Of a stretch of 64,000 bases of DNA, positions 1 to 37,218 are shown piece after piece. Each line of letters starts with the position of its first letter. Positions within the stretch are counted from its first letter, which is position 1. Under the pieces are notes generated by a model. The model was not told the DNA's origin. It worked only from the letters and a program-made list of their open reading frames with translations, and made no database searches. The position numbers and the translations under genes were made by a program. Origin of the DNA: a phage; sequence record PV946933.1. One strand, written 5' to 3'.

Positions 1-604
1 CACCGACAGATCCTGCACCCGGAGCGGAAATGGTGCCAGCGGTTGCACCAGCACCCATATGAGAGGAAGACCCGCCAGCACCGAATGGGCGACCACCACC
101 ACCACCAAATGATAGTCTACCGTAGTTACCGCCGCCGCCACCGCCACCGCCGCCTGCAATAGCTCCACCATTATTAATTCTTAGTCTCCCACCAATATCG
201 TTTTGAATACAATGACCTCCAGCTGAGCCAGGACTATTGCTACCGCCATTCCCGCCACGACCATACATCGTTACACCATGTATATTCAGTTGAACATATT
301 CATTCGGTGTATCTCCGTACATGAAGAATAAAGGAACATCTTTAGAATATGATACTAAATCTCCAGTGATATTAAACACTATAGGTGTACTACCTGCCTC
401 AAAACATCTATCTCGGAACCACTGACCATTGAAGTTATGGTCTGCTCCAAGCGTGTGAATTATTTCTTTTGAACGTCCTGCAAATTGGGACATCCATGAA
501 GGGTTTCCTAAACGAAGTTCCCTTGAAGCAGCCGACATCCATCTTTGTCCTGTTTCAGCGACGGCCGAAGTCCCAATCCAACCCGGAATTCCCACTACTG
601 CCAT
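1..604 (-). CDS. 38: gp38 tail-fibre adhesin, T2-type (N-terminal ~200 aa; C-terminus beyond window start)
   Basis: Manual translation of minus strand from ATG at 604-602: [24 protein letters not shown]...; poly-Gly runs ([25 protein letters not shown]); SD GGAGG upstream; missing from ORF track because no stop inside window. Confidence 0.85.
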
Positions 605-615
605 AAAAACCTCCA

Positions 616-630
616 GGGCCCACAGGGCCC
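616..630 (-). promoter_or_regulatory. intercistronic stem-loop GGGCCC-ACA-GGGCCC between gene 37 stop and gene 38 SD
   Basis: perfect 6-bp inverted repeat with 3-nt loop, immediately 5' of gp38 ribosome binding site. Confidence 0.5.
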
Positions 631-634
631 TTTC

Positions 635-3600
635 TTATAATAATGATTTAATTAATGCTTTCAATTCAGCAATTTCAGATTTCAATTCCTTGATTTCGTC
701 AGTATGCTCGTTGATAGTAGCAGTATTTAAACCGATAATACCGTTATAATTCAAACGAAGCAATCCAGTCTCTTTATCTTCAGAAACAAGTTCAGGCAAT
801 ACTTTTTGAACTTCCTGGGCGATTAAACCGGCTGACGGTTTAACTTCATCAGTAACGGGATTTTTAAGCAGATAAGTATAACCACCTAAGAGTTTAGATT
901 TCTCTTGTGCGTTATCGATAAGCTTAATTTCCGACTTACAACGAATATCAGAACGAATATAAACGTCGTTAACATCAATGTTATCACGGACATATACACC
1001 GGCGTTACAGTGGAAGTTAACGTTGCTAAATGTTTGGGCAAGTCCAGCTCGAATACTGAATACACCTTGACCATTAGCATACATGTTGTAGATGCCATCG
1101 CTTTCCCAGACCAATCCAGTGTCATTGTCACCAATTGCTATGCATGGCGTAGACCAGGCGGGTTCAATACCTACGCCAATACCTGCCCAACCGGAAACAA
1201 TTCTTCCTGGGGAAGTAAACTGCCCGTTGGCCAAAAATTGATAAACCGCTGCAGGATGTCCTTGTTCTGGTGTATTTTCAGTTGAACGAACAATTATACA
1301 ACCGGTACCCCAACCTGCGGTACCTGAACGTAAAGTACCTAGCTCTACACTTGTGTTATATCCATACCCCGTTGAAGAACTTCGTCCTTTAATAATAGGA
1401 TAGTACACGTTCCCGTTTAATTCGCCATGTTCTACAAATATAGGAGCTTCAAGGTTATATTGTGGGCTAATCGCACCTGAGTTTTGAGAGACCCATCTTG
1501 TAGCATTAACAAACATGCGGTTTTCACTCATTTGAACCAAGCCAAAAGAGCTTGGGCTAAATGCAATAGAGCCTTCGGCATTCAAATCAATACCGGTTGT
1601 TGTTTTATAGTTGTAAAAAGATACCGTGTCGGATTGTCCGCCTTTACCTATGAACCAGCTATTAACACCACCAACATCTGAACGAATATGTGAACTATTG
1701 ACAGCATTAGGTGCTCTAATTACTAAAGCATCATCGGCCGCAGCAATAGTCAACCTACCGGTCATCGTATCGCCTTCTTTGGCAACACGAGTAGCTATTG
1801 CATCGCGAATATTTGTAATGTCTCCTGCTGAAGTAAACGTGTTCCAAATATCCGAGAAAATATTACCATCACGAGCAATAGCAGCTTCGCCACCGCCGAC
1901 CAGAACGTTATCCGGGAAGTTAACTGTACCATCAGCGTTAAATCTTGATGTATGGCCTTGTGAACCATCTTCTTTGATATGGTGTAAAACAAATGTACCA
2001 GAATTAATTTCAGTGCCTAAAGACCAAACAGCTTTGCTGTTTAAAAACTTCTGTTTAACAATAGGATAATATTTGCTTATAGCATCATCATCAATTTCCT
2101 GGAAAACAGGAGCTGCTTGAACATATTGAATATCATAACCACCTGCGCCCGCGCCGTGACCAGTAAATTTAATATAACCGTTCGCAGCGAACGTATTGTA
2201 ACTTGATTGTAAATCTGGAATAGTAACTTTACCAGTATCTAAAGCCATACTAAACGGGCGAAGTGGACCGATATCACCATGTTTACCTTCACCGTAAGCA
2301 GTTGGAATAATATGAAGACTGCCTTCTGAACGTCTAAAAATAGCTCCATAATCTGCGTTCCAAATGCGAAGCGCATTAACTGCTCCAGATGAAATTTCGC
2401 CTGTTGTGTGAACTCCTCTATTTCCAGCAGTAACACCAGATGATTCAAATGAACCATTGACGTTCATTTCTACTTCGCCAGTAGTAAGTCTTTGAATATA
2501 GCTCATCCAGCTAGTTGCATCAGAAATTTCCATAATGTTTTTACGGATACCTCCGCTTGGATCAACAAACGTATTACCCCAAACTTTAATATCCATATTA
2601 TCAACCGAGCTGTATCCTGTTGTGTTGCCTCTAAACATTAGTGTAGAAGAATTATTTCTACCATCTATATTAACAGAACCGCCAATAACATCAATATTAC
2701 CTGGAGTAACTAACAAACCGCCATGAGTATTAATGTTTGTGGTACCCTTACCGCGGAAATAATGATGATAATTACCACCTTGGTAATATCCTAAAAGAGT
2801 CTGACCATCTCCATACGCATTATTATCATGGTAAGTAACAACAGTGGCTAATGCATAGTTTTCTGTCGGTGGCGTTGTCATAAGAAGCCCATCTGGAGAA
2901 TAACCCATAACCATTTTTCTAAGACTGGTGGTTTCTGCAGGGCCGTAAGTGAAAGTCCTTGTTCCGTTGTTTACTGTTTGGAAATATCCGTCCTGATGCC
3001 ATTTTAGCCCGGTATCATTATCACCAAGAGAAATTGAAGCAGTCCCTAATTCAGAGTATCCTTTATTGCCACCAGGAGTACCAACAGAAATAGAATGGCC
3101 TGCTTTCAATCCACCGGACCAGGTAAACGACCAAAGATAGGCATCTAACCCGTCACCGGCGTACCAGGTTATCCCGTCGTTATCTTTAACTTCATGGAAT
3201 ATACCAGATCCTACGGCATTTCGCATAACACGGAGGTGGTTAATAGCCGTTTCGCTTTCTGCCAATGGAGTGTTATTTGCTAATGAAGATATATCATAAT
3301 CGCCCGTCTTCTTCCCATCTGTAATAACTTTATCGGTCAGAATTTGTGGAGACGAAATAGATTTCCACGCTGATACTTCAGGTGAAGTAAATAGTCCACT
3401 GCCTGAAAATGCATAGGTGCTTTCGCTTCCTGCAGCATAATCTTGAACCCTGATATTAAGTACTTGTGTAGTTAATCCATCATTAGCCGGGGCATAAATG
3501 ATTCCACGTTCGCGACTATTGCCATCGAAAAAACGAACATGTGCTGTACCTGAACTTTTTGTAATAAGTTCTCCGCCTTCGGTCATAATCTTCCCGGCGG

Positions 3601-3898
3601 CAATAATATCGCGAGTTACTCGAGCAATACCAGTTAAATTGAAATCACCGGTTTGAGTGAAGGTACCATTTAAAGTATAATCACCAGTTTGATTATAGTT
3701 TCCTATATGAATAACATTCCCGTCAATACTACCGCCCTTAGCAAAACCCAGATCAATGATATTTCCTTGGTCATCTTTAGTAAAAAGTACGCGGTCTTTT
3801 AAGTTTATAGCCAATTCACCTTCGGCTAATACTGAAGCGGCAGGACGTGCTCCTGCAGTTTTGCTTCTTTTAAATTGTATTTGTTTTAAAGTAGCCAT
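635..3898 (-). CDS. 37: gp37 long tail fibre distal subunit, with C-terminal intramolecular-chaperone-like domain
   Basis: 1087 aa; N-terminus MATLKQIQFKRSK... as in T4 gp37; repeated GDNDTGL(K/V)W motifs; C-terminal ~120 aa coiled/chaperone-like tail (..SDIRCKSEIKLIDNAQEK..AELKALIKSLL). Confidence 0.93.
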   Translation of the reverse strand: MATLKQIQFKRSKTAGARPAASVLAEGELAINLKDRVLFTKDDQGNIIDLGFAKGGSIDGNVIHIGNYNQTGDYTLNGTFTQTGDFNLTGIARVTRDIIAAGKIMTEGGELITKSSGTAHVRFFDGNSRERGIIYAPANDGLTTQVLNIRVQDYAAGSESTYAFSGSGLFTSPEVSAWKSISSPQILTDKVITDGKKTGDYDISSLANNTPLAESETAINHLRVMRNAVGSGIFHEVKDNDGITWYAGDGLDAYLWSFTWSGGLKAGHSISVGTPGGNKGYSELGTASISLGDNDTGLKWHQDGYFQTVNNGTRTFTYGPAETTSLRKMVMGYSPDGLLMTTPPTENYALATVVTYHDNNAYGDGQTLLGYYQGGNYHHYFRGKGTTNINTHGGLLVTPGNIDVIGGSVNIDGRNNSSTLMFRGNTTGYSSVDNMDIKVWGNTFVDPSGGIRKNIMEISDATSWMSYIQRLTTGEVEMNVNGSFESSGVTAGNRGVHTTGEISSGAVNALRIWNADYGAIFRRSEGSLHIIPTAYGEGKHGDIGPLRPFSMALDTGKVTIPDLQSSYNTFAANGYIKFTGHGAGAGGYDIQYVQAAPVFQEIDDDAISKYYPIVKQKFLNSKAVWSLGTEINSGTFVLHHIKEDGSQGHTSRFNADGTVNFPDNVLVGGGEAAIARDGNIFSDIWNTFTSAGDITNIRDAIATRVAKEGDTMTGRLTIAAADDALVIRAPNAVNSSHIRSDVGGVNSWFIGKGGQSDTVSFYNYKTTTGIDLNAEGSIAFSPSSFGLVQMSENRMFVNATRWVSQNSGAISPQYNLEAPIFVEHGELNGNVYYPIIKGRSSSTGYGYNTSVELGTLRSGTAGWGTGCIIVRSTENTPEQGHPAAVYQFLANGQFTSPGRIVSGWAGIGVGIEPAWSTPCIAIGDNDTGLVWESDGIYNMYANGQGVFSIRAGLAQTFSNVNFHCNAGVYVRDNIDVNDVYIRSDIRCKSEIKLIDNAQEKSKLLGGYTYLLKNPVTDEVKPSAGLIAQEVQKVLPELVSEDKETGLLRLNYNGIIGLNTATINEHTDEIKELKSEIAELKALIKSLL

Positions 3899-3906
3899 AA
3901 GTCCTC

Positions 3907-4563
3907 TTAATAATAGCCGAAATCTTGAACAGAATCCTTAATAACAATTTGATCAAATCGTGGAACATGTGAAGGTTGAGATGCAGGATTCTGTGAAAAA
4001 AGGTTTGGCGCGGTTAAATTTCCTGTCATAGTGTCTCCAGAGCGTAATACTCTAGAGTTTGCGTTTGCTGTAACAATATTTATTGCTCCATCAACATAAT
4101 CTTTCCGTGTAAGGTCATAATTATTTACTGGTGATAATGAAGTTGCGCGTATTTGTGATGCTTCAATTACACCCTTTGAGCTAATATCTCCATTTCGCGT
4201 GTTAATTACTACAGTTCTACCTGCTGTTCCTTGTGATGATTTAAAACCAATACCATACCACGAAACAATATCCATATTTGTAGTATCAAATGTTGCTCCA
4301 TCATCATTACCAGGATATATACCATTTCCAGAATTACTTGCTAATGGAATCGTTATTCCATTATTAAAAATTACTCTATTTAAATAAGTACCACCATTAG
4401 CTTTAGAAACGAAATCGTTATCAGCAGCTTGTGGTTTATTGTATTCTGAATATATTTTAAATGATTTATAGAGTACATCGTCACCGGCTGGATTCAATGG
4501 AAAATTTCCTTGATGCCAAATGACAGAGCCTCCAGTTGTTGAACCTACTTTTAAATCAGCCAT
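3907..4563 (-). CDS. 36: gp36 long tail fibre hinge connector
   Basis: 218 aa; starts MADLKVGSTTGGSVIWHQGNF as T4 gp36; position between 35 and 37. Confidence 0.93.
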   Translation of the reverse strand: MADLKVGSTTGGSVIWHQGNFPLNPAGDDVLYKSFKIYSEYNKPQAADNDFVSKANGGTYLNRVIFNNGITIPLASNSGNGIYPGNDDGATFDTTNMDIVSWYGIGFKSSQGTAGRTVVINTRNGDISSKGVIEASQIRATSLSPVNNYDLTRKDYVDGAINIVTANANSRVLRSGDTMTGNLTAPNLFSQNPASQPSHVPRFDQIVIKDSVQDFGYY

Positions 4564-4586: not shown

Positions 4587-4594
4587 TATTTATA
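4587..4594 (-). promoter_or_regulatory. late promoter (TATAAATA on minus strand) upstream of gene 36
   Basis: plus-strand TATTTATA = minus-strand TATAAATA, ~25 bp upstream of gp36 ATG. Confidence 0.6.
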
Positions 4595-4621
4595 AAGAAA
4601 AAGGGAACCCGAAGGCTCCCT
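4595..4621 (-). terminator. stem-loop plus U-run after gene 35
   Basis: minus strand AGGGAGCC-TTCG-GGTTCCCT (one mismatch) followed by TTTTTCTTT. Confidence 0.55.
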
Positions 4622-4625
4622 CAAT

Positions 4626-5744
4626 TTAAACTTCTCTAAATTCTTGTCCAAACACTTTACCAGTTTTAGACGATGCTTGCGTAGGAAGTACCATTATATC
4701 TGGAGGTGAAGCAGATTCACAGACATAATTAACTCGAATACCATTGACGCCAAATTCAGCAGGTTTTGAAATTCCGCCATTTCTTGATACTTCAGAAAAG
4801 CTTAAATTCCTCATTCCGCCTTGACCAGCTTGAGCAGTTCTCTGCGCATATATAGTAAATCCGACTGCATTTTCAGGAACAACTACATAATCTTCCTTTA
4901 ATTCCCATGACTCAGCTTGTCCAGTAAACTCAGCATGTGTTGAAGAAATATATCCATTCGATTCATCATAAAAACGGATAGATATATTTGTAGTTCCAAG
5001 CGCAAGTAAATCTGCATCAGCATATAGCTGTGCTTTAAGATAAAGAACATCACCAGGAATTAAATTATAATCAGATAATTTACTTATCGCGGATGAAGTT
5101 GGTAAACGTGCAATTTCGTTATTAGTTCCACCGACCGCTGACATAAATTGCTCAACGCTTTCATACGTTCTTCTTGGAAACCCGGTAGCTCCAACGTCTT
5201 CTAAACTGTCAAATACAACATCTAAAATAGTTTGATAGTCATCTGTGCTTTTTCTATTACTTAATTTAACATGCTCTAACGCAATAGCTCTTTTAGAAGA
5301 AGTATAAAAGGCAGCATATGATACGTCAAATCTTGACAATACAGAATCAGATGGAAAAGCAGACGTTCCCGCGGCTCTTAGCCAAGATACTACCTCAGGA
5401 GGAAAATTAACCTTTCCGCTAGTTAATATAGCAACAAGTCTATTATTCGTCAAAGAGTTCATGAAGCTAACAAAAGCAGCTGACGTAGTATCATTTGATG
5501 TCGAAAAAGCATATGACTTACTATCAACTAATGCTCCTGTAGAAGGGTCAAAAACCCTTAAATGAAGTCCTGCGCTAAATGTTTGACTTCCAACAGGATT
5601 ATCCTGAAATTTAACGTATGGTCCTTCTGCAGTAGAAAGCGGGCAAGAACCCGCTATACTTATTTTATATCTTACTGAATTGCTTTCCGATAAAAATGGC
5701 GTTTGGACATATCCTTGTCCAAACTCTGCCATAAATTTTTCCAT
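4626..5744 (-). CDS. 35: gp35 long tail fibre hinge protein
   Basis: 372 aa, same length as T4 gp35; synteny 34-35-36-37. Confidence 0.93.
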   Translation of the reverse strand: MEKFMAEFGQGYVQTPFLSESNSVRYKISIAGSCPLSTAEGPYVKFQDNPVGSQTFSAGLHLRVFDPSTGALVDSKSYAFSTSNDTTSAAFVSFMNSLTNNRLVAILTSGKVNFPPEVVSWLRAAGTSAFPSDSVLSRFDVSYAAFYTSSKRAIALEHVKLSNRKSTDDYQTILDVVFDSLEDVGATGFPRRTYESVEQFMSAVGGTNNEIARLPTSSAISKLSDYNLIPGDVLYLKAQLYADADLLALGTTNISIRFYDESNGYISSTHAEFTGQAESWELKEDYVVVPENAVGFTIYAQRTAQAGQGGMRNLSFSEVSRNGGISKPAEFGVNGIRVNYVCESASPPDIMVLPTQASSKTGKVFGQEFREV

Positions 5745-5752
5745 AATACCTC

Positions 5753-8700
5753 TTATTCAACCCATTCAAATTTAACCGTTTTATTCACTGGGTCAGGAAT
5801 AATGCGAACATTACCAATTCGTAAGAAATCACGAATAGTAAGATTCCCCATTATAGCATTATCAGATGGTAAAGCACCGATATCAGATGGCTGAGGAGGG
5901 TTACCCCCATCAAATACCTGAACAAAACTTGACCAAGAGTTTTTAGTTTTCTGCCATGTACGCGTCCAGCGAGTGGTGCGCGCTTCTGGGGTCGTTGGAT
6001 AAGTAATCCAATCTTGGTAAAGCGAATCGAGTGTGTTACCAAACTGAGTCAACGTACCAGGAGATTTAACCTCTTCGCCGCGTTCTAAGTATGGAAGCCC
6101 AGTCACTTCATTAGTTTTTTCAACCATCTTAAAATAACCCGGGAATTGGTTATAAGTGGCTGAATCATTAATATCGATTGACCAGAATCCTACGGTATCA
6201 GATGTTGGCGCACGGGTATATAAATCAGAGGTTTTAGTACCCTGAGAACGAATTCTCGAGTTAACAGTTAAACCACCTGAAGTTATAGTAGCACCTTTGG
6301 CAATGATTAAGCTTTCACCAATTGTAACCTGACCAGATTGATTATTAATTGATAATGGACGTAATCCATTAAACCCACCGGTCTGATCACCAGATGCAGT
6401 AAGCATAAAATAGGTGTTAGCAGCATCATTGCGAATAAAGAATCCATAATCACCGTTTATTGCTCTAAAAGCATTCGACGATTTACTGATAAATTCGCCA
6501 TTAGCAGTAACTGAACTACCGAATGTTGCAACGCCGTTCGCGTTCAAAGAACCTAAAGCATTCACATTTATTGGCATTACAGTACCATTAATGCTAAATG
6601 CTATATTACCATCTTTATCGCGTTGAGAATAAAAGTGATAAGATGTTTCATCACTAACTTCAAATACGGTAGAACGTGTTGTGTTTGATTCCCCACTAAA
6701 TTGATTCCCCCACACGCTGACTGTCATCGTTTGAGCCGGGTTCGTTCCAGTTTGAGGTCCTTTCTCAAAAATCAGACGAGTTGCTGTTCCATCAGTATTA
6801 GAAATGGTTAGTGTACTATTTGCTGAAACTGATCCACCAAACGTAGCAGTACTAGATGATACAAGAGGGGCACTCAGATTCGTTTGTTGGGTTAATGTTA
6901 GTGAACCATTAACTGTCTGTGCAATATCCCTACGAATGAACTGAGATGAATCTAGACCATCCAGTAAATTACTATCTACGGCTTTTGCTTTTAACGGCAA
7001 ATAATTTGCTAATACGCGGTTTAATTCATATGGCGATACTGCATAGCTATTTTTCTCATATAGCTCTAAGTCCTGCGTAGAACCAACTGTATCATTACCA
7101 ACGAATGTAATTGAACCAGATGAAGTTTTAACAAAACCTCTTACCAGAGTAGTAGCTGCCCATGTTGGTTCATTCTGGACAATCCATTTTAAATTTTTTG
7201 GAGATACAGCAGTATTTGCTGACGTTCCAGCTACAGTTTCAGACTGAGTTGCAACTTTAATAACGCCTTCCTGTGCTTCAGTAGATTTAGTACCTAAAAG
7301 CTTTTTAGGAGTTATTAAAACATTATCTAATGTTCCTGCAGCAGCTTCGACTTGTGTAGCTACACGAAGTGTACCACGCTGTGTCTCATTTGCTTCAAGA
7401 ATATTAAGGGTATAATGGTCCCAGAGAGTTCCTGATTCAACTAATCCAGATAGAGCAACAACAGAAGTACGATCAGTACTATTAAATCTGGTTTTAATTT
7501 TTAATGGTGTAGAGATACGAGTATCGTCGACGCCTGCGTCGAATTCAACTTGTGTAGCAATTTCAGCTATACCACTTAAACTTTCAGTTGCTTTACGGTC
7601 ATTTAAAGTTTTAGGAGTGACTGCACGAGTATAATCAGTTCCTGTATTAACTTCACTTTGCGTAGCAATTTCAATTAAACCAATTCTTGCATCAGTTGAT
7701 GTCTTTTTATGTAACGTTTCTGGCGTTACAACCGCATTTGCCCATCCTTCTTGGCTTTGTCCAGCAATTACTTCACTTTCAACTGCTAAAATTACTGCAC
7801 CTTGTTGTGTTGGAGTAGCTTTATACTGGTCCAAAGCTTTAGGCGAAACAACTAAATTATTAGTGTTTTTATTATAAACGTTTGTACCATTTAATTCACG
7901 ACTAGAAGCTGGAGTAGCTCCTGCAGTAGATACAAAGGTTACAATACCCGATAATGATTCAGAACCTTGTCGAGCTTGAAGCTTTTTAGGAGTGATGATT
8001 GTAGTATCATCAGTACCTGCGTTAGTTTCTTGCTGTGTAGCAATTTCAGCAACGCCTCTACGAGTTTCTGTGGCAGTTCTTTCATTCAGCTTTTTAGGAG
8101 TGATGATAATATCATCAGCAAAAGAGAATGTGGTGTTCTGATTCACTTGAGCAGTAGTTGCTATTCTTGCGATACCTCTACGAGTTTCTGTAGCAGTACG
8201 ATTAGCTAATGTTTCTGGTGTAATTGCTAATTCTTTTTGTGGAGAATTTTCTAAATCAGCATTTGCTTGAGCTTGTGTAGCTAAAGCAATTACGCCTAAT
8301 CTTGCTCTAGTAGAATCATTTAAAGAATCAACTCTTTCAACTGTTGGCACGTTTTGCTGCACCACCCAGTATTTTCCATCAGAATCTTCTATATAAGCAA
8401 GCTGTAAAACTGGAACATAATTGGTTTCGCCGTTAAAAACTAATTCTTGAACAGTCACCCATTCAGCTTCAGGTGGATATTCTGAACGTTTTGGGAATTG
8501 CAGCAATTGAACTGAAGAAGCAATTTTATCTTCACCGGCAGCTTTGATTTTAACTGTTTGTCCTTTTCTCATATAATTCATGGAAATTTTAACAGTATCA
8601 CCAATGGAAATATCGGTTGGAAGCTGAAGTTCAATTGTTTGGGTTGTTCCGTTATTCGCTCCAAATACCATAACTTCTTCATTTGGACGAATACTAGAAT

Positions 8701-9625
8701 TAGTTGTTATAATACGTAAACGTGCTTTACTATCCCCGTCAAACAATCTCCACAATTTTTCATTATCATCATACATCAAGAAACCATCAATCGATGTACG
8801 GCCTTCAATGGAATGAGTTCCAACTTCTTGCACTGAAGTTGTTTCATCGTATGTAGTAACAATTGTATGATAAAGTGGATTTAATTTGTCTAAATCGACG
8901 AAATTAATAATATCGCCATGATTAGCAAATCTCGGAAGTTTAATATTAATCGCCGCGGCTGAAGTAAATCTGCGCACGATAAAATCGTTAGATTGCGCCT
9001 GATAAAGACTTGCCGGTGTTACGACTACAGCTTCTCTGCTATAATCAGCAACATACATTTGCCACAGACGATTACTAAAAATTAAAACTATCTGCGATTT
9101 TGGATGAGTCATTAGTACTGAACGTACTTGTTCGCCTCTGAAGTTTACAATACTTTGCACTGGAGCTACAATTAAAACTTGGTTAACACCAGGTTTTCCA
9201 CCAATATCTTGAAGAACGATAGTATCTCCATCAATTGGAGAAGATGGCAAAGTAAATGTAATGTCATTACCAGCTGCAGTATCAACTGAAATTGATTCGC
9301 CTGACTTTAATTGATAAGGTCCTGATGAAACAGTTGTCCAATTAGCATCAGTACGTAATGCTCTCCAGCGTACACTATTAAAAGCTCCTGCTGGTTTTGG
9401 AATATCATTTATAGCAGCCCAAAAGCGGTTATCATAAATGATTACAAAATCTTTTAAATATCCACGAGTTGGATCATATTGTTGAACTGTGTTTTCTTGA
9501 ATTAGGTAATCAACGTTAACACCGTCAGTTCCTACGGTACGATCAGCTAAAGCTACGTTGATTATTTTATCGCCACCTGCGTCCAGACCGTCTTCTGCTC
9601 TGAACTTTCTTTTAATCTCGGCCAT
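5753..9625 (-). CDS. 34: gp34 long tail fibre proximal subunit
   Basis: 1290 aa; MAEIKRKFRAEDGLDAGGDKIINVALADRT...; internal tandem TPKKL..R.ATE...G..IAT repeats. Confidence 0.95.
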   Translation of the reverse strand: MAEIKRKFRAEDGLDAGGDKIINVALADRTVGTDGVNVDYLIQENTVQQYDPTRGYLKDFVIIYDNRFWAAINDIPKPAGAFNSVRWRALRTDANWTTVSSGPYQLKSGESISVDTAAGNDITFTLPSSPIDGDTIVLQDIGGKPGVNQVLIVAPVQSIVNFRGEQVRSVLMTHPKSQIVLIFSNRLWQMYVADYSREAVVVTPASLYQAQSNDFIVRRFTSAAAINIKLPRFANHGDIINFVDLDKLNPLYHTIVTTYDETTSVQEVGTHSIEGRTSIDGFLMYDDNEKLWRLFDGDSKARLRIITTNSSIRPNEEVMVFGANNGTTQTIELQLPTDISIGDTVKISMNYMRKGQTVKIKAAGEDKIASSVQLLQFPKRSEYPPEAEWVTVQELVFNGETNYVPVLQLAYIEDSDGKYWVVQQNVPTVERVDSLNDSTRARLGVIALATQAQANADLENSPQKELAITPETLANRTATETRRGIARIATTAQVNQNTTFSFADDIIITPKKLNERTATETRRGVAEIATQQETNAGTDDTTIITPKKLQARQGSESLSGIVTFVSTAGATPASSRELNGTNVYNKNTNNLVVSPKALDQYKATPTQQGAVILAVESEVIAGQSQEGWANAVVTPETLHKKTSTDARIGLIEIATQSEVNTGTDYTRAVTPKTLNDRKATESLSGIAEIATQVEFDAGVDDTRISTPLKIKTRFNSTDRTSVVALSGLVESGTLWDHYTLNILEANETQRGTLRVATQVEAAAGTLDNVLITPKKLLGTKSTEAQEGVIKVATQSETVAGTSANTAVSPKNLKWIVQNEPTWAATTLVRGFVKTSSGSITFVGNDTVGSTQDLELYEKNSYAVSPYELNRVLANYLPLKAKAVDSNLLDGLDSSQFIRRDIAQTVNGSLTLTQQTNLSAPLVSSSTATFGGSVSANSTLTISNTDGTATRLIFEKGPQTGTNPAQTMTVSVWGNQFSGESNTTRSTVFEVSDETSYHFYSQRDKDGNIAFSINGTVMPINVNALGSLNANGVATFGSSVTANGEFISKSSNAFRAINGDYGFFIRNDAANTYFMLTASGDQTGGFNGLRPLSINNQSGQVTIGESLIIAKGATITSGGLTVNSRIRSQGTKTSDLYTRAPTSDTVGFWSIDINDSATYNQFPGYFKMVEKTNEVTGLPYLERGEEVKSPGTLTQFGNTLDSLYQDWITYPTTPEARTTRWTRTWQKTKNSWSSFVQVFDGGNPPQPSDIGALPSDNAIMGNLTIRDFLRIGNVRIIPDPVNKTVKFEWVE

Positions 9626-33079: not shown

Positions 33080-33102
33080 GAATAAACACTAGAGAGGATA
33101 TG

Positions 33103-35157
33103 ATGGAACTCATTACAGAATTATTTGACGAAGATACTACTCTTCCGATTACAAACTTAAATCCAAAGAAGAAAATACCACAAATTTTTTCAGTTCATGT
33201 TGATGATGCAATTGAACAACCAGGCTTTCGTTTATGTACCTATACATCTGGAGGTGATACTAATCGCGATTTAAAAATGGGCGATAAAATGATGCATATT
33301 GTTCCTTTTACATTAACTGCTAAAGGTTCAATTGCTAAATTAAAAGGTCTCGGTCCAAGTCCAATTAATTACATCAATTCAGTTTTTACTGTTGCAATGC
33401 AGACGATGCGTCAGTATAAAATTGATGCCTGCATGCTTCGTATTCTTAAGTCTAAAACTGCTGGTCAAGCTCGACAAATTCAAGTTATTGCTGATAGACT
33501 TATCCGTAGTCGTTCAGGTGGCAGATACGTCCTTCTTAAGGAACTCTGGGATTATGATAAAAAGTATGCATATATTCTTATACATCGCAAAAACGTATCA
33601 CTAGAAGACATTCCAGGAGTTCCGGAAATTAGTACCGAGCTCTTTACTAAAGTTGAATCGAAGGTCGGCGATGTTTATATCAATAAAGATACTGGGGTTC
33701 AAGTAACTAAAAATGAGGCAATTGCGGCATCTATTGCGCAAGAAAACGATAAACGTTCTGACCAAGCTGTAATTGTTAAAGTTAAAATTTCCCGTAGAGC
33801 AATTGCACAAAGTCAGTCATTGGAATCTTCTAGATTTGAAACACCAATGTTTCAAAAATTTGAGGCTTCAGCAGCAGAATTAAATAAACCTGCCGACGCG
33901 CCTTTAATTTCTGATGCGAACGAATTAACCGTTATTTCTACTTCAGGATTTGCATTAGAGAATGCTCTTAATAGTGTTACGGCTGGAATGGCATTCAGAG
34001 AAGCTTCTATAATTCCTGAAGATAAAGAATCTGATGTTAATGCAGAAATAAAAAATAAAGCTTTAGAAAGATTACGAAAAGAATCTATTACTTCAATAAA
34101 AACTTTAGAAACTATTGCTTCTATAGTCGATGATACTTTAGAAAAATATAAAAGTGCTTGGTTAGAAAGAAATATTAACAAGCATTCGCATTTAAATCAA
34201 GATGCTGCAAATGAGTTAGTGCAAAATTCTTGGAATGCAATAAAAACAAAGATTATTCGAAGAGAATTACGTGGATATGCTCTTACCGTTGGGTGGTCAT
34301 TGCATTCTATAGTCGAAAATAAAGATTCATCTAAATACACACCGGCTCAAAAACGCGGAATTCGTGAATATGTGGGTTCAGGATATGTAGACATGAATAA
34401 TGCTCTTTTGGGATTATATAATCCAGATGAGCGTACAAGTATTTTGACAGCACCCGAAATAGAACAAGCCATCGATAATTTAGATTCAGCCTTTAAAAAT
34501 GGCGATCGATTGCCAAAAGGTATTACTTTATATCGTTCACAGCGAATGTTACCTTCAATATATGAAGCATTGGTAAAAAATCGAGTTTTTTATTTTAGAA
34601 ATTTTGTATCAACATCGTTATATCCAAACATTTTTGGTACTTGGATGACTGATTCAGCTGTGGGTGTTTTACCAGATGAAAAACGTCTAAGCATTTCTAT
34701 CGATAAAAATGATGAAGGGCTTGTTAATTCTAGCGATAATTTAGTTGGAATTGGATGGGTTATTACTGGAGCTGATAAAGTCAATGTTGTTTTACCCGGT
34801 GGAAGTTTAGCGCCTTCAAATGAAATGGAAGTCATTTTGCCACGTGGATTAATGGTCAAAATTAATAAAATAACCGATGCATCTTACAATGATGGAACAG
34901 TTAAAACTAACAACAAGCTTATTCAAGCTGAAGTTATGACTACGGAAGAACTCACCGAATCGGTAATTTATGACGGTGACCGTCTAATGGAAACTGGTGA
35001 ATTGGTTGCAATGACAGATGATATTGAAATAGAAGACAGAGTTGACTTTGCATCATTTGTTTCATCAAATGTTAAACAGAAAGCAGAATCATCTCTCGGA
35101 ATTATTGCGTCTTGCATAGATATTACAAACATGCCTTACAAGTTCGTTCAAGGATAA
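33103..35157 (+). CDS. alt: Alt ADP-ribosyltransferase (virion-packaged)
   Basis: N-terminus MELITELFDEDTTLPITNL...; ART motifs LYRSQ, FVSTSL, EVILPRG; SD GAGAGGA. Confidence 0.93.
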   Translation: MELITELFDEDTTLPITNLNPKKKIPQIFSVHVDDAIEQPGFRLCTYTSGGDTNRDLKMGDKMMHIVPFTLTAKGSIAKLKGLGPSPINYINSVFTVAMQTMRQYKIDACMLRILKSKTAGQARQIQVIADRLIRSRSGGRYVLLKELWDYDKKYAYILIHRKNVSLEDIPGVPEISTELFTKVESKVGDVYINKDTGVQVTKNEAIAASIAQENDKRSDQAVIVKVKISRRAIAQSQSLESSRFETPMFQKFEASAAELNKPADAPLISDANELTVISTSGFALENALNSVTAGMAFREASIIPEDKESDVNAEIKNKALERLRKESITSIKTLETIASIVDDTLEKYKSAWLERNINKHSHLNQDAANELVQNSWNAIKTKIIRRELRGYALTVGWSLHSIVENKDSSKYTPAQKRGIREYVGSGYVDMNNALLGLYNPDERTSILTAPEIEQAIDNLDSAFKNGDRLPKGITLYRSQRMLPSIYEALVKNRVFYFRNFVSTSLYPNIFGTWMTDSAVGVLPDEKRLSISIDKNDEGLVNSSDNLVGIGWVITGADKVNVVLPGGSLAPSNEMEVILPRGLMVKINKITDASYNDGTVKTNNKLIQAEVMTTEELTESVIYDGDRLMETGELVAMTDDIEIEDRVDFASFVSSNVKQKAESSLGIIASCIDITNMPYKFVQG

Positions 35158-35160
35158 ATC

Positions 35161-37218
35161 ATGGAACTTATTACAGAATTATTTGACGGCGCTTCGGCGC
35201 CGGTTGTTAACTTAAATCCTAAGCATAAAATACCTCAAATTTTTGCTATTCAAGCCGGTGAAGAAAGCGTGCTTCCTGGATTTAGATTTTGTACATACAC
35301 CTCTGGTGGTGATACAAATAAAAACGTTAAGCCAGGCGATAAAATGATGCATATCGTAATGATAGGTGTTAATGAGAAACTATCATTAGTTAAACTTAAA
35401 AACTTGGGTGGAAATCCAATTGGTGTCATTAATGCGGTTTTTGATACTGCTCTTCAGACAATGAAACAATACAAAATTGACGCATGCTTATTCCGCGTAC
35501 TAAAGAGTAAAACAAATGGTGCAGCTCGTCAAATGCAAGTTATTGCCGACCGTTTAGTACGTACTAAAGGAGCAGGTCGATATGTTCTTTTAAAGGAAAT
35601 CTGGGATTACGATAAAAAGTACGCATATATTATGGTTTACCGTAAAAATGCTAATTTAGAAGACATTCCAGGTGTACCTCCTATTTCAACTGAGTTATTC
35701 ACAAAAGTTGAATCAAAGGTTGGTGATGTTTATGTAGATGTTAAAACAGGTAATGCTGTTCCTAAAGCTGTTGCTGTTGCTGCTTCTATTGCTTTAGAAA
35801 ACGATAAGCGCACGGATCAAGCTGTTATTCAGAAAACTAAAATTAGTCGTCGGTTAGCAGCACAAGCTCAATATTCTACTGTCGATGCTTCACTTCAGGG
35901 TGATAGCTTCGCTGCTAAGAAATATCAAGAGTTTGAATCTAAAGTTCCGGTATATAAAGCAGAAGGACCAATGAACTCTGGCGTTATTCAGGTTGGTTCA
36001 AACTTCAGCAAAGGAGCTATCGGTGGTATGAGAAGTGCTTCCCGTTTTAAATCTAGTGATTATGAATTAGAAAGCTTCCGAAATCATATTGCATTGGCTC
36101 ATGCGCGTTTACGTGATCCATCTATCAAGTTACAGAGCGATATATCATATCAAGGTTCTCAAGAATATTTAAAGAATAAAGAATTTTTTGATTATAAAAC
36201 TGATAAAATTTTAAGTGATCTTGCTGACATTAATATTTCTAATAGCTTTGATGTTATTAAGAAAATTGTCAATGATTTAGTTAAAGGTTCTAAAGCCACA
36301 CCAGATGAAAAGGTAGCTATTGTTCAATTTGTCATGAATGGCATTTATAAATTGATTAATGAGTCTGCTTCTCAAGCGTATGAATATGCAAGTACTGAAG
36401 TAACCCCAAAAGGATTAACTCGGGCTGAGTCTGATGTAATTGAAGATTATTGTGCAGATTCATATGTTGAAATGAACTCGTTCCTTTTAGGTAAACCGGA
36501 TTCTACCCGTGAAGAATATATGGAACGAGCTATTAAACACATCGAGACAATGGATTCTGCCTTTGCCAAAGGATCAGTTCTTCCTCCAGGAACTACACTT
36601 TACCGTGGGCAAGAAGTTACCTTTAAAACTTTACGTCATAATATTGAAAATAAAATGTTCTACTTCAAGAACTTCGTATCCACATCGCTTAAACCAAATA
36701 TCTTCGGTGAGTATGGTAAAAACTATATGGCTCTAGATGATTCCAGTACAGTATTTTCTGGTGAAGGAGAAGGTTCAGTTGATGCTGAAGATTTAATGCA
36801 TATGGGTAGTCACTCTGCTTATGCGAATGAAGATGCTGAAACTAGCGTAGGTATGGTAATTAAAGGGGCTGAGCGAATTAAAGTTATCGTTCCAGGTCAT
36901 TTATCAGGATTTCCATCAGAAGCTGAAGTTATTTTACCACGTGGAATTTTGCTGAAGATTAATAAAGTGAGTACGTACATGATGAAAGAAACTGCTTATA
37001 ATAAGTATCTAATCGAAGGCACAATCGTTCCTCCTTCTGAACAATTAGAAGAATCGGTATATGATGGCGACCATCTAATGGAAACTGGTGAAGTTCGTCC
37101 AATGGCTGGATTTAATCAATTCCTTGTAGAAGAATCAAAAGAAGAGGAAAACGAAGTTTCTCAAATCTTGGCTTCTTTGGTTAACATCAACGGAATGTCT
37201 AAAAAGTTCAAGATGTAG
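35161..37218 (+). CDS. second Alt-like ADP-ribosyltransferase paralogue
   Basis: 685 aa; shares MELITELFD N-terminus, YKIDAC, GRYVLLKE.WDYDKKYAYI, LYRGQ, FVSTSL, EVILPRG with adjacent Alt; divergent middle. Confidence 0.85.
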   Translation: MELITELFDGASAPVVNLNPKHKIPQIFAIQAGEESVLPGFRFCTYTSGGDTNKNVKPGDKMMHIVMIGVNEKLSLVKLKNLGGNPIGVINAVFDTALQTMKQYKIDACLFRVLKSKTNGAARQMQVIADRLVRTKGAGRYVLLKEIWDYDKKYAYIMVYRKNANLEDIPGVPPISTELFTKVESKVGDVYVDVKTGNAVPKAVAVAASIALENDKRTDQAVIQKTKISRRLAAQAQYSTVDASLQGDSFAAKKYQEFESKVPVYKAEGPMNSGVIQVGSNFSKGAIGGMRSASRFKSSDYELESFRNHIALAHARLRDPSIKLQSDISYQGSQEYLKNKEFFDYKTDKILSDLADINISNSFDVIKKIVNDLVKGSKATPDEKVAIVQFVMNGIYKLINESASQAYEYASTEVTPKGLTRAESDVIEDYCADSYVEMNSFLLGKPDSTREEYMERAIKHIETMDSAFAKGSVLPPGTTLYRGQEVTFKTLRHNIENKMFYFKNFVSTSLKPNIFGEYGKNYMALDDSSTVFSGEGEGSVDAEDLMHMGSHSAYANEDAETSVGMVIKGAERIKVIVPGHLSGFPSEAEVILPRGILLKINKVSTYMMKETAYNKYLIEGTIVPPSEQLEESVYDGDHLMETGEVRPMAGFNQFLVEESKEEENEVSQILASLVNINGMSKKFKM

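Follow-up and report, generated by a model that had tools for sequence, protein, structure and literature searches.

A predicted T2/S16-type distal-tip module with a probable OmpA-type adhesin in the long tail fiber locus of a Tequatrovirus

Several phages with a gp38-capped long tail fiber have been described in detail. In Salmonella phage S16 (PDB 6F45; Dunne et al. 2018), gp37 carries an autocleaving chaperone, and gp38 is composed of an attachment domain with Trp prongs, a beta-helix, and a polyglycine sandwich with a long poly-Gly stretch at aa ∼151-158. The three gp38 tryptophans act as prongs that insert into pockets of gp37, and the long poly-Gly motif at the center of S16 gp38 is 151-GGGGGGGG-158 (numbering from PMC6851490). 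Cleavage of gp37 has been placed at DLNVS^SDRRIKK in S16 and at DVYIR^SDGRLKI in the fPS phage, and the fragment released in S16 is 113 aa long (PMC7917993). The S16 adhesin binds Salmonella OmpC. Among related adhesins, the receptor of Escherichia phage IME340 (MH051916), a Tequatrovirus, was identified as OmpA by deletion, complementation, and adsorption assays (PMC6499177), and FL12, FL20, and FL18 are classed as OmpA 'type 2' adhesins (Lutz et al. 2025, PMC12032242). Among the OmpA loop variants of that study, infection confined to variants 1, 3, and 4 is the mark of type 2. Phage EV240 uses OmpA/HepI, and exchange of one variable-loop residue is sufficient to convert the RB51-type OmpF specificity to OmpW in RB68 (bioRxiv 10.64898/2026.04.02.716166).

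Here, a 64,000-nucleotide stretch of phage DNA (sequence record PV946933.1; hereafter the window) was analyzed, whose core genome is that of a Tequatrovirus. With a probability of roughly 90%, we read the locus at its beginning as a distal-tip module for a long tail fiber of T2/S16 type, carrying an OmpA-type adhesin and assembled by recombination. The gp37 cleavage motif of the window aligns to that of S16, and its gp38 is homologous to the S16 adhesin throughout the parts listed above, with the variable loops differing between the two.

Gene layout and tip architecture

The module and its expression signals are encoded on the minus strand as follows.

635..3898 (-), gene 37, long tail fiber distal subunit precursor (ORF list; 1087 aa plus stop)
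953..3898 (-), predicted mature gp37, aa 1-982 (cleavage site placed by alignment)
615..631 (-), intercistronic hairpin AGGGCCC-UGU-GGGCCCU, GC-rich, 3' of the gp37 stop and 5' of the gp38 ribosome-binding site
610..614 (-), Shine-Dalgarno sequence GGAGG, 5 nt 5' of the gp38 ATG (sequence reading)
2..604 (-), gene 38, receptor-recognizing adhesin, first 201 codons (translation; Pfam; PDB matches)
4587..4594 (-), TATAAATA, matching the T4-type late-promoter consensus, 5' of gene 36 (pattern search)

A previous reading of the letters alone (the sequence-only reading) had proposed a T2-type host-range module, in which a gp37 with a self-cleaving-type chaperone is followed by a glycine-rich gp38. 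This proposal is borne out by Pfam, by homology to 9V85 and 6F45, by the Ser/Lys motif, and by the three tryptophans, and the length of 1087 aa that it gave for gp37 is exact for the ORF at 635..3898 (-), the product of which ends in ...SDIRCKSEIKLIDNAQEKSKLL...AELKALIKSLL. Pfam assigns Gp34_trimer (aa 453-550), gp37_trimer (aa 724-777), and Peptidase_S74 (aa 983-1038) domains to this protein. Residues 914-1086 align to the S16 gp37 chain 6F45_A (phmmer, E=4e-30), and by homology to S16, aa ∼914-982 are expected to constitute the C-terminal tip of the mature chain and the predicted docking end for gp38. Over window positions 274-4000, Shigella phage ESh24 (ON528734) shares 93% nucleotide identity.

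Gene 38 lies immediately downstream, following a 30-nt spacer that contains a hairpin and the Shine-Dalgarno sequence. The hairpin has a folding energy of -16.3 kcal/mol with z=-1.6 (fold of the 50-nt context) and is scored as terminator-like by a consensus scan. It is present at the equivalent position in all eight aligned phages, with stem sequences that vary and pairing that, by eye, appears to be kept. Exact 50-mers and 25-mers across this hairpin had no match in IMG/VR, the 25-mer had none in the JGI metagenomes, and no protein identical to gp37 turned up in an exact-sequence look-up. A pattern search found no TATAAATA late promoter between genes 36, 37, and 38, including directly upstream of gp38, and because of this gp36, gp37, and gp38 are probably transcribed together. 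The TATAAATA site nearest to gp38 is the one upstream of gene 36. Late synthesis of the three proteins would then probably proceed from the promoter at 4587-4594.

The gp38 ORF begins with an ATG at 604-602 (-) and remains open, with no stop, through 201 codons to the window start. Since its full-length relatives ST2 and IME340 are 259 aa long, the window therefore holds 201 of ∼259 residues (78%), with the last ∼58 lying beyond it. The claim that only the N-terminal part of gp38 is present must accordingly be corrected, as the visible portion includes the poly-Gly helix and the GGGGGRPFG motif. The order of the two genes and the poly-Gly motifs were read correctly, with the ORF running from 604 (-) and glycine runs at aa 151-159 and 167-171.

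The 36-37-38 gene order as in T4 and the Tequatrovirus core genome would also fit a T4-type fiber, in which the C-terminal tip of gp37 binds the receptor and gp38 serves as a chaperone in assembly without becoming part of the virion. However, gp38 belongs to adhesin families, with Pfam matches to PF21721 Gp38_N (E=4.8e-21, 74.9 bits) and PF05268 GP38 (E=7.4e-54, 183.3 bits) that exceed the cut-offs of 25, and its homologs include the adhesins carried on the virions of PP01 (9V85, E=2e-67) and S16 (6F45_D, E=5.5e-48). The C-terminal end of gp37 is, moreover, predicted to be a cleavable-type S74 domain. T4 gp37 is not known to have an S74 domain. At E<=0.01, Pfam returned no tail-fiber-assembly chaperone family for gp38, and a PDB search returned no T4 gp37 tip structure for gp37, yielding only S16 gp37 and gp34 chains. 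With neither a chaperone-family match for gp38 nor a T4 tip match for gp37 at this threshold, a T4-type tip was rejected, and its probability is next to nil.

The gp37 chaperone domain and its predicted self-cleavage

Within the T2/S16-type reading, two features at the 3' end of gene 37 would prepare the fiber for gp38.

638..952 (-), intramolecular chaperone domain at the gp37 C-terminus, 105 aa long (aa 983-1087; Pfam PF13884; invariant columns)
950..955 (-), predicted autocleavage site Arg982/Ser983, motif DVYIR^SDIRCK (gp37 alignments)

The domain matches PF13884 Peptidase_S74 ('chaperone of endosialidase') over gp37 aa 983-1038 with E=1.2e-11 and 45.2 bits (cut-off, 22), and it forms the last 105 aa of the protein, C-terminal to Gp34_trimer and gp37_trimer. 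It contains Ser983, Lys988, and the core AGLIAQEVQKVLPE, and it closes with a heptad-like helix, EIKELKSEIAELKALIKSLL. In an alignment of five gp37 sequences, the S, K, A-Q, and L-P-E columns of the domain are invariant. A self-cleaving-type chaperone of ∼120 aa had been proposed for this end; Pfam upholds the type, and the size is revised to 105 aa (983-1087), as set by alignment to the reported S16 cleavage site. The predicted fragment is thus 105 aa in the window versus 113 aa in S16.

The window motif DVYIR^SDIRCK aligns to the S16 cleavage site, and its Y-I-R-S-D-x-R-x-K pattern is invariant in five of five gp37 sequences (T2, T6, IME340, ST2, and the window). The cleavage motif is found in all seven gp37 C-termini compared, among them those of ESh24, PhAPEC2, and bov9_1. 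In SDIRCK, the lysine stands five residues past the predicted cleavage serine, the canonical i/i+5 spacing of a Ser983/Lys988 pair. The Pfam family of the gp37 C-terminus is shared with its founder, the endosialidase of phage K1F. Work ascribed to Schulz et al. in 2010 is said to have found that the endosialidase domain uses a Ser/Lys dyad, with the lysine five residues past the serine, and is released after trimerization. The K1F chaperone sits on a tailspike rather than a long tail fiber, and no adhesin occupies the end that its cleavage exposes.

These features suggest an order of events for the window fiber. The C-terminal chaperone domains (aa 983-1087) would set three gp37 chains in register, and gp37 would then cut itself between Arg982 and Ser983 by means of the Ser983/Lys988 dyad. 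The 105-aa chaperone fragment is predicted to be released after trimerization, which would expose the end of a trimeric beta-helix.

The loop residues of the motif are unlike those of S16 (SDIRCK versus SDRRIK), as might be expected if the S74-like domain were a degenerate, uncleaved remnant, with gp38 binding elsewhere or the fiber being non-functional. Against this, both Ser983 and Lys988 are retained, the motif around them does not vary among T2, T6, IME340, and ST2, and the Pfam score is double what the cut-off requires. The domain is also 96-100% conserved at the DNA level in ESh24, and the C-termini of ESh24, PhAPEC2, and bov9_1 are near-identical; such conservation across these phages argues for selection. 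We therefore consider degeneration very unlikely and retain a cleavable chaperone as the predicted state of gp37.

The gp38 adhesin and its probable receptor

Three features of gp38 bear on how it would attach to the fiber and to the host.

479..604 (-), gp38 N-terminal attachment domain, aa 1-42, allelic type 'A' (Pfam Gp38_N)
2..268 (-), predicted polyglycine (PGII) sandwich, visible receptor-binding region, aa 113-201 (glycine runs; column variability, 11 adhesins)
128..154 (-), nine-glycine run, aa 151-159 (position as in S16 gp38 151-GGGGGGGG-158)

In the attachment domain, Trp9, Trp22, and Trp37 are invariant in the gp38 alignment. The type-A form of this domain is found with a gp37 tip and chaperone domain likewise of type A. 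By analogy with S16, a single gp38 monomer would cap the gp37 end through this three-helix domain, inserting the three tryptophans into three equivalent pockets. The remainder of gp38 is predicted to consist of a beta-helix and a polyglycine-II sandwich of glycine-rich motifs, the variable loops of which would touch the host receptor. Residues 113-201 are 40% glycine and include a 9-Gly run (aa 151-159) and a 5-Gly run (aa 167-171), with glycine-rich motifs at 115-121 (GRGGNGG), 129-130 (GG), 146-159, and 167-178, and the GGGGGRPFG motif also lies inside the window. Per-column variability among 11 adhesins delimits variable segments at aa ∼121-132, 159-166, and 176-201. The hypervariable segments had been thought to lie beyond the window start; three are in fact within it, and only the last ∼58 aa are outside. 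Glycine-rich and variable segments, the lack of which the sequence-only reading had named as evidence against itself, are thus both present in the window.

Overall, gp38 is 98.5% identical to ST2, 95% to IME340, 84% to T6, and 52% to T2. The label 'T2-type' therefore holds for the architecture, while the adhesin sequence itself is far from T2 and nearer T6. Phage T2 has in common with the window the architecture, the S-D-x-R-x-K motif, the three tryptophans, and GGGGGRPFG; its gp37 is 1341 aa long as compared to 1087 aa, and its chaperone domain and gp38 N-terminus represent a third allelic type.

Across aa 113-201, gp38 is 100% identical to IME340, 96% to FL12 and EV240, 84% to T6 and FL04, 56% to ESh24, and 53% to T2. 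OmpA is the predicted receptor because of the identities to IME340, FL12, and EV240, which served as the OmpA comparison adhesins, standing in for K3 and Ox2. When 234 records were ranked against the receptor-binding part of IME340, the OmpA adhesins named above scored 83-100%, followed by RB3/RB5/RB6/RB7 at 77%. The window gp38 also carries the 5-residue deletion of the OmpA group, where T6 and FL04 have GGGYYSPFPQMRLTF, and has an OmpA-group segment in common. Identity to IME340, together with these group signatures that set it apart from T6-like Tsx adhesins, makes OmpA most probably the receptor of the window gp38. With the last ∼58 residues outside the window, this assignment rests on 78% of gp38.

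A receptor other than OmpA, either Tsx, as in T6, or another porin, would leave the architecture unchanged. It would apply if the C-terminal variable segments beyond the window diverged from those of IME340, or if minor differences in other parts of gp38 prevailed. The Tsx-specific gp38 of T6 is 84% identical, both overall and over aa 113-201, and its first glycine-rich region is identical to that of the window; OmpA 'type 2' adhesins are near Tsx adhesins, which suggests a recent switch (Lutz et al., PMC12032242), and the last 58 aa of gp38 fall outside the window. The visible variable segments, however, are those of IME340, whereas T6 and FL04 differ from them by the 5-residue deletion (in T6, five extra residues, SPFPQ, in the second variable segment) and in the third segment. 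ST2, the closest full-length relative (98.5%), has an IME340-like C-terminus, and right up to the window edge the DNA keeps 96-98% identity to IME340. Since the variable segments match OmpA-verified IME340 rather than T6 or FL04, the Tsx assignment suggested by 84% T6 identity was judged the less likely, and a receptor other than OmpA is improbable, though it keeps a small share of the probability.

In relatives, gp38 totals ∼250-265 aa, its C-terminal residues ...PTWxNVGAIYGPRV are conserved, and the next gene is the holin gene t; IME340 shares with the window the 259-aa length class and has the gene order 37-38-t. We infer that the missing ∼58 residues of the window gp38 would resemble those of ST2 and IME340. 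If like its relatives, the protein would end in ...EGSLWVYTGGNGGEVGSAGGRCNIHGNGTEYNGG.AGYAVIGS.PTW.NVGAIYGPRV. The C-terminal part of the IME340 and ST2 adhesins is marked by GEGSLWVYTGGNGGEVGSAGGRCNIHGNGTEYNGG. The final variable segments of gp38 lie in the last ∼58 residues, and recombination inside gp38 is common. The last variable segments of the OmpA group (a GEGSL..YT insertion and CN.HG.GTEY) fall beyond the window start.

Recombination inside gp38 and what the module means

The relatives of the locus change within gp38. When identity is measured in sliding 150-nt segments, ESh24 matches the window at 89-100% from 2000 to 640 and IME340 at only 37-63%, while from ∼450 to 1 the identity to IME340 is 96-99%. 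The same holds for the proteins: gp38 aa 1-45 match ESh24 at 100% and IME340 at 80%, and aa 46-201 are 99-100% identical to IME340. In ESh24, PhAPEC2, and bov9_1, the chaperone is near-identical and gp38 aa 1-45 are 98-100% identical to the window, but aa 113-201 belong to another allele with 54-64% identity. Conversely, the distal half of gp37 and the chaperone of IME340 are of another type (26% amino acid identity over the last 220 residues; 37-63% at the DNA level), and its gp38 N-terminus is of type B as opposed to type A in the window; T6 likewise has a type-B gp38 N-terminus and chaperone domain. These identities show the locus to be a natural recombinant in which the segment from the distal half of gp37 through the chaperone to the attachment domain of gp38 is of the ESh24 kind and the receptor-binding part of gp38 is of the IME340 kind. 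The crossover is located inside gp38, near aa 1-50, at about window 600-450, where the attachment domain ends.

In all 11 phages compared, which fall into three types, the gp37 C-terminal type is matched to the gp38 N-terminal type, and one OmpA-binding gp38 module occurs on all three gp37/gp38 N-terminal types. T2 gp37 and the PP01 gp38 N-terminus are functionally incompatible (PMC12892980). It is conceivable, at rather long odds, that the pairing reflects obligate structural co-adaptation instead of linkage, and that the unseen 58 residues could alter or widen the receptor range beyond OmpA. If co-adaptation were to hold, a general 'plug' rule would follow, by which any gp38 receptor-binding part would be portable to any T-even fiber.

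Descriptions of T2, T6, S16, PP01, and many field isolates already cover this architecture, a chaperone that cleaves itself, a polyglycine adhesin, and modular shuffling, and the window module leaves current understanding unchallenged. What it provides is a clear case of modular exchange inside gp38. The gp37/gp38 tip module decides which bacteria the phage attaches to, and its practical yield is the prediction of an OmpA receptor with an adhesin of the narrow-host-range 'type 2' kind, which aids the choice or engineering of therapeutic phages.

Organization of the tail-fibre locus

The tail-fibre end of the window carries an ordinary T2/S16-type fibre-tip module, in which gp37 is the distal subunit of the long tail fibre and gp38 the receptor-recognizing adhesin at its tip. 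The sequence-only reading had rightly recognized this module, and its length of 1087 residues for gp37 was exact.

Features of the locus (all on the minus strand)
2-604, minus: gp38 ORF, ATG at 604-602, 201 codons without a stop up to the window edge (translation)
gp37-gp38 spacer, minus: Shine-Dalgarno sequence GGAGG, 5 nt 5' of the gp38 ATG (read from sequence)
631-615, minus: GC-rich hairpin AGGGCCC-UGU-GGGCCCU, between the gp37 stop and the gp38 Shine-Dalgarno sequence (fold and terminator-like scan)
635..3898, minus: gp37 ORF, 1087 aa (ORF listing, window 1-4000)
~1080-1140, minus: gp37 motif copy, aa ~917-937 (ORF translation)
~2998-3070, minus: gp37 motif copy, aa ~285-305 (ORF translation)
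3907-4563, minus: gp36, upstream of gp37
4587-4594, minus: T4-type late-promoter consensus TATAAATA, ahead of gene 36 (pattern search)
4626-5744, minus: gp35, upstream of gp36
5753-9625, minus: gp34, upstream of gp35

The consensus ahead of gene 36 is the only T4-type late-promoter consensus near genes 36, 37 and 38, which are therefore probably co-transcribed as a single late transcript. It is directly preceded by a CUUCGG-loop stem-loop (GAGGGAGCCTTCGGGTTCCCTT plus a T-run; 4601-4622, minus) just 3' of the gp35 stop codon. Residues 59-124 of gp35, the proximal hinge connector, match Pfam PF15711 ILEI (E=4.8e-8, 33.8 bits, cut-off 27), the interleukin-like EMT inducer/FAM3 fold, a family whose name is surprising for the hinge protein of a phage fibre.

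The gp37-gp38 spacer is 30 nt long and holds both the hairpin and the Shine-Dalgarno sequence. A hairpin was present at this junction in all eight aligned phages (the window and relatives L001-L007). Judged by eye, the stems vary yet keep pairing (GGGCCC/GGGCCC, GGGCC/GGCCC, GGGGG/CCCCC, AGAGGGC/GCCCTCT, GGGGC/GCCCC), and the loop is a C(UUCG)G-type tetraloop in five relatives as compared to UGU in the window. An exact 25-mer spanning the window's hairpin had no match in IMG/VR or JGI metagenomes. The putative function of the hairpin is probably that of an mRNA-stabilizing or attenuating element.

While the window core shares 97% identity with Tequatrovirus phage W143, the tail-fibre end is far more divergent, its best full-length match being 87.5% (Escherichia phage ST2); ESh24 is 93% identical over window 274-4000 by megablast. 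ARAGORN found no tRNA genes in the 64-kb window (1-64000). Two adjacent ORFs of 685 aa each (33100-35157 and 35161-37218, plus) may form a tandem paralogue pair; in relatives, the 24-kb region containing both is annotated with two genes for Alt-like RNA polymerase ADP-ribosyltransferases.

The gp37 chaperone domain and the gp38 adhesin

Pfam Peptidase_S74 ("chaperone of endosialidase") matches gp37 at residues 983-1038 (45.2 bits, cut-off 22), and the C-terminal ~175 residues align with S16 gp37 as solved in the fibre-tip structure (6F45_A, E=4e-30). The S16 intramolecular chaperone comprises the C-terminal 113 residues; it is autocleaved between the paired serines of DLNVS^SDRRIKK, which uncovers the surface where gp38 docks, and Yersinia T4-like phages have DVYIR^SDGRLKI as the corresponding site (PMC7917993). 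S16 is also named among fibres that lose the chaperone by autoproteolysis (PMC7289586). A Y-I-R-S-D-x-R-x-K block is invariant in alignments with T2, T6, IME340 and ST2 gp37, occurs in ESh24, PhAPEC2 and bov9_1, and reads DVYIR-SDIRCK in the window, with Ser983 and Lys988. By alignment, we infer that the cut would fall at Arg982|Ser983 and release a 105-aa fragment (window 638-952). The intact Ser/Lys motif and high conservation make it unlikely that the domain is a non-cleaving chaperone remnant. The self-cleaving chaperone-like C-terminus proposed earlier thus held as to family, by the Peptidase_S74 match and Ser/Lys motif, but not as to length, given as ~120 aa.

gp37 also has two copies of an (S/A)(I/L)GDNDTGL(K/V)W..DG(Y/I) motif, SISLGDNDTGLKWHQDGY and IAIGDNDTGLVWESDGIY, the second aligning with IAIGDNDTGLRWGGDGI of the S16 gp37 tip; the motif appears to be a structural unit that recurs in fibre shaft and tip.

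Pfam assigns the visible part of gp38 to Gp38_N (aa 1-42, E=4.8e-21) and to GP38 (aa 47-199, E=7.4e-54), and the adhesin structures solved for PP01 (9V85, E=2e-67) and S16 (6F45_D, E=5.5e-48) also match it. The family assignments of gp38 and gp37 exclude a T4-type arrangement. Three gp38 tryptophans insert into gp37 pockets (PMC6851490), and W9, W22 and W37 are present and invariant in the alignment; the mechanistic steps of the fibre-tip model are those we infer from homologues. Residues 113-201 are 40% glycine, with GRGGNGG at 115-121, a nine-Gly run at 151-159 in the position of the long S16 motif (151-158), and a further glycine-rich motif at 167-178. Since full-length relatives (ST2, IME340) have 259 aa, the window covers 78% of gp38, leaving the last ~58 residues outside. 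The sequence-only reading, which saw only an N-terminal part, therefore needs correcting in this share as well as in the chaperone length. Its placing of the hypervariable segments beyond the window start was also wrong for three of them, as variable columns among 11 adhesins cluster at aa ~121-132, 159-166 and 176-201. Glycine-rich and variable segments are thus both present, favouring an adhesin. The T2-type label is borne out for architecture only, with gp38 just 52% identical to that of T2, as compared to 84% for T6, 95% for IME340 and 98.5% for ST2.

Identity to the window gp38 by segment (aa 1-45; 46-112; 113-201)
IME340: 80%; 99%; 100%
ESh24: 100%; 91%; 56%
FL12: 67%; 100%; 96%
EV240: 80%; 97%; 96%
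T6: 78%; 85%; 84%
FL04: 78%; 99%; 84%
T2: 64%; 42%; 53%

The ST2 record (OM982647), a T4-like genome of 171 kb that includes gp37, gp38 and holin, annotates gp37 and gp38 as "hypothetical protein", and its taxonomy line nevertheless gives Guernseyvirinae; Kagunavirus. It looks like a mis-classified record.

Mosaic structure and predicted receptor

Sliding 150-nt identity profiles were calculated against ESh24, IME340 and ST2. In the distal half of gene 37 with its chaperone domain (window ~2000-640), identity is 89-100% to ESh24 but merely 37-63% to IME340. IME340 identity is ~62% near the gp37/gp38 boundary (bin 673), increases over bins 598 and 523 and stands at 96-99% between window ~450 and position 1, a stretch over which ESh24 drops to 67%. 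This switch places the crossover inside the first ~50 gp38 codons, close to where the attachment domain ends. Megablast matches of many phages stop at window 274, 243, 135 or 129 (gp38 codons ~110, 120, 156 and 158), in or beside glycine-rich motifs, and these positions fit the published proposal (PMC12032242) that such motifs are recombination points. ST2 has the same gp38 as the window, but its gp37 distal half is just 62-77% identical; no match with exactly the window's combination, in which gp37 is ESh24-like and the receptor-binding part IME340-like, was found.

Three gp37 C-terminus types (...AELKALIKSL(L/IK), ...FTKIARKISxYFKF and ...RVKELESKLM) and three gp38 N-terminal types correspond one-to-one in 11/11 phages. 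The pairing may reflect no more than linkage between neighbouring stretches of DNA; in a 2026 study, however, PP01 gp38 proved compatible with T2 gp37 only once the N-terminal 113 residues had been exchanged (PMC12892980). The receptor-binding part assorts independently of these types (window, relatives L002-L010), the OmpA version occurring on all three (window and ST2; IME340 and EV240; FL12).

OmpA was established as the IME340 receptor in BL21 through resistant mutants, an ompA deletion with complementation, and measured adsorption rates (PMC6499177). FL12, FL18 and FL20 carry OmpA-dependent "type 2" adhesins of narrow host range, while FL04 and the classical Tsx phage T6 use Tsx (PMC12032242). 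EV240 is OmpA/HepI, and CM8 gains OmpA specificity from EV240 gp38 (bioRxiv 10.64898/2026.04.02.716166). With the IME340 receptor-binding part as tblastn query, these OmpA adhesins score 83-100%, and the RB3/RB5/RB6/RB7 phages form the next group (77%). The window gp38 has two OmpA-group signatures, a 5-residue deletion in the second variable segment as compared to GGGYYSPFPQMRLTF in T6/FL04, and one 14-residue segment common to both the window gp38 and the group. Based on this identity and these signatures, OmpA is the predicted receptor, with a probability of roughly 0.75. The final ~58 residues lie beyond the window edge, and exchange of one residue can be enough to redirect porin specificity, e.g., in RB68 (bioRxiv 10.64898/2026.04.02.716166). 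Tsx or another porin, the sole serious alternative, appears improbable. While the module itself is known biology, the predicted OmpA "type 2" specificity and the mapped recombination junction are what this analysis adds to the sequence-only reading.
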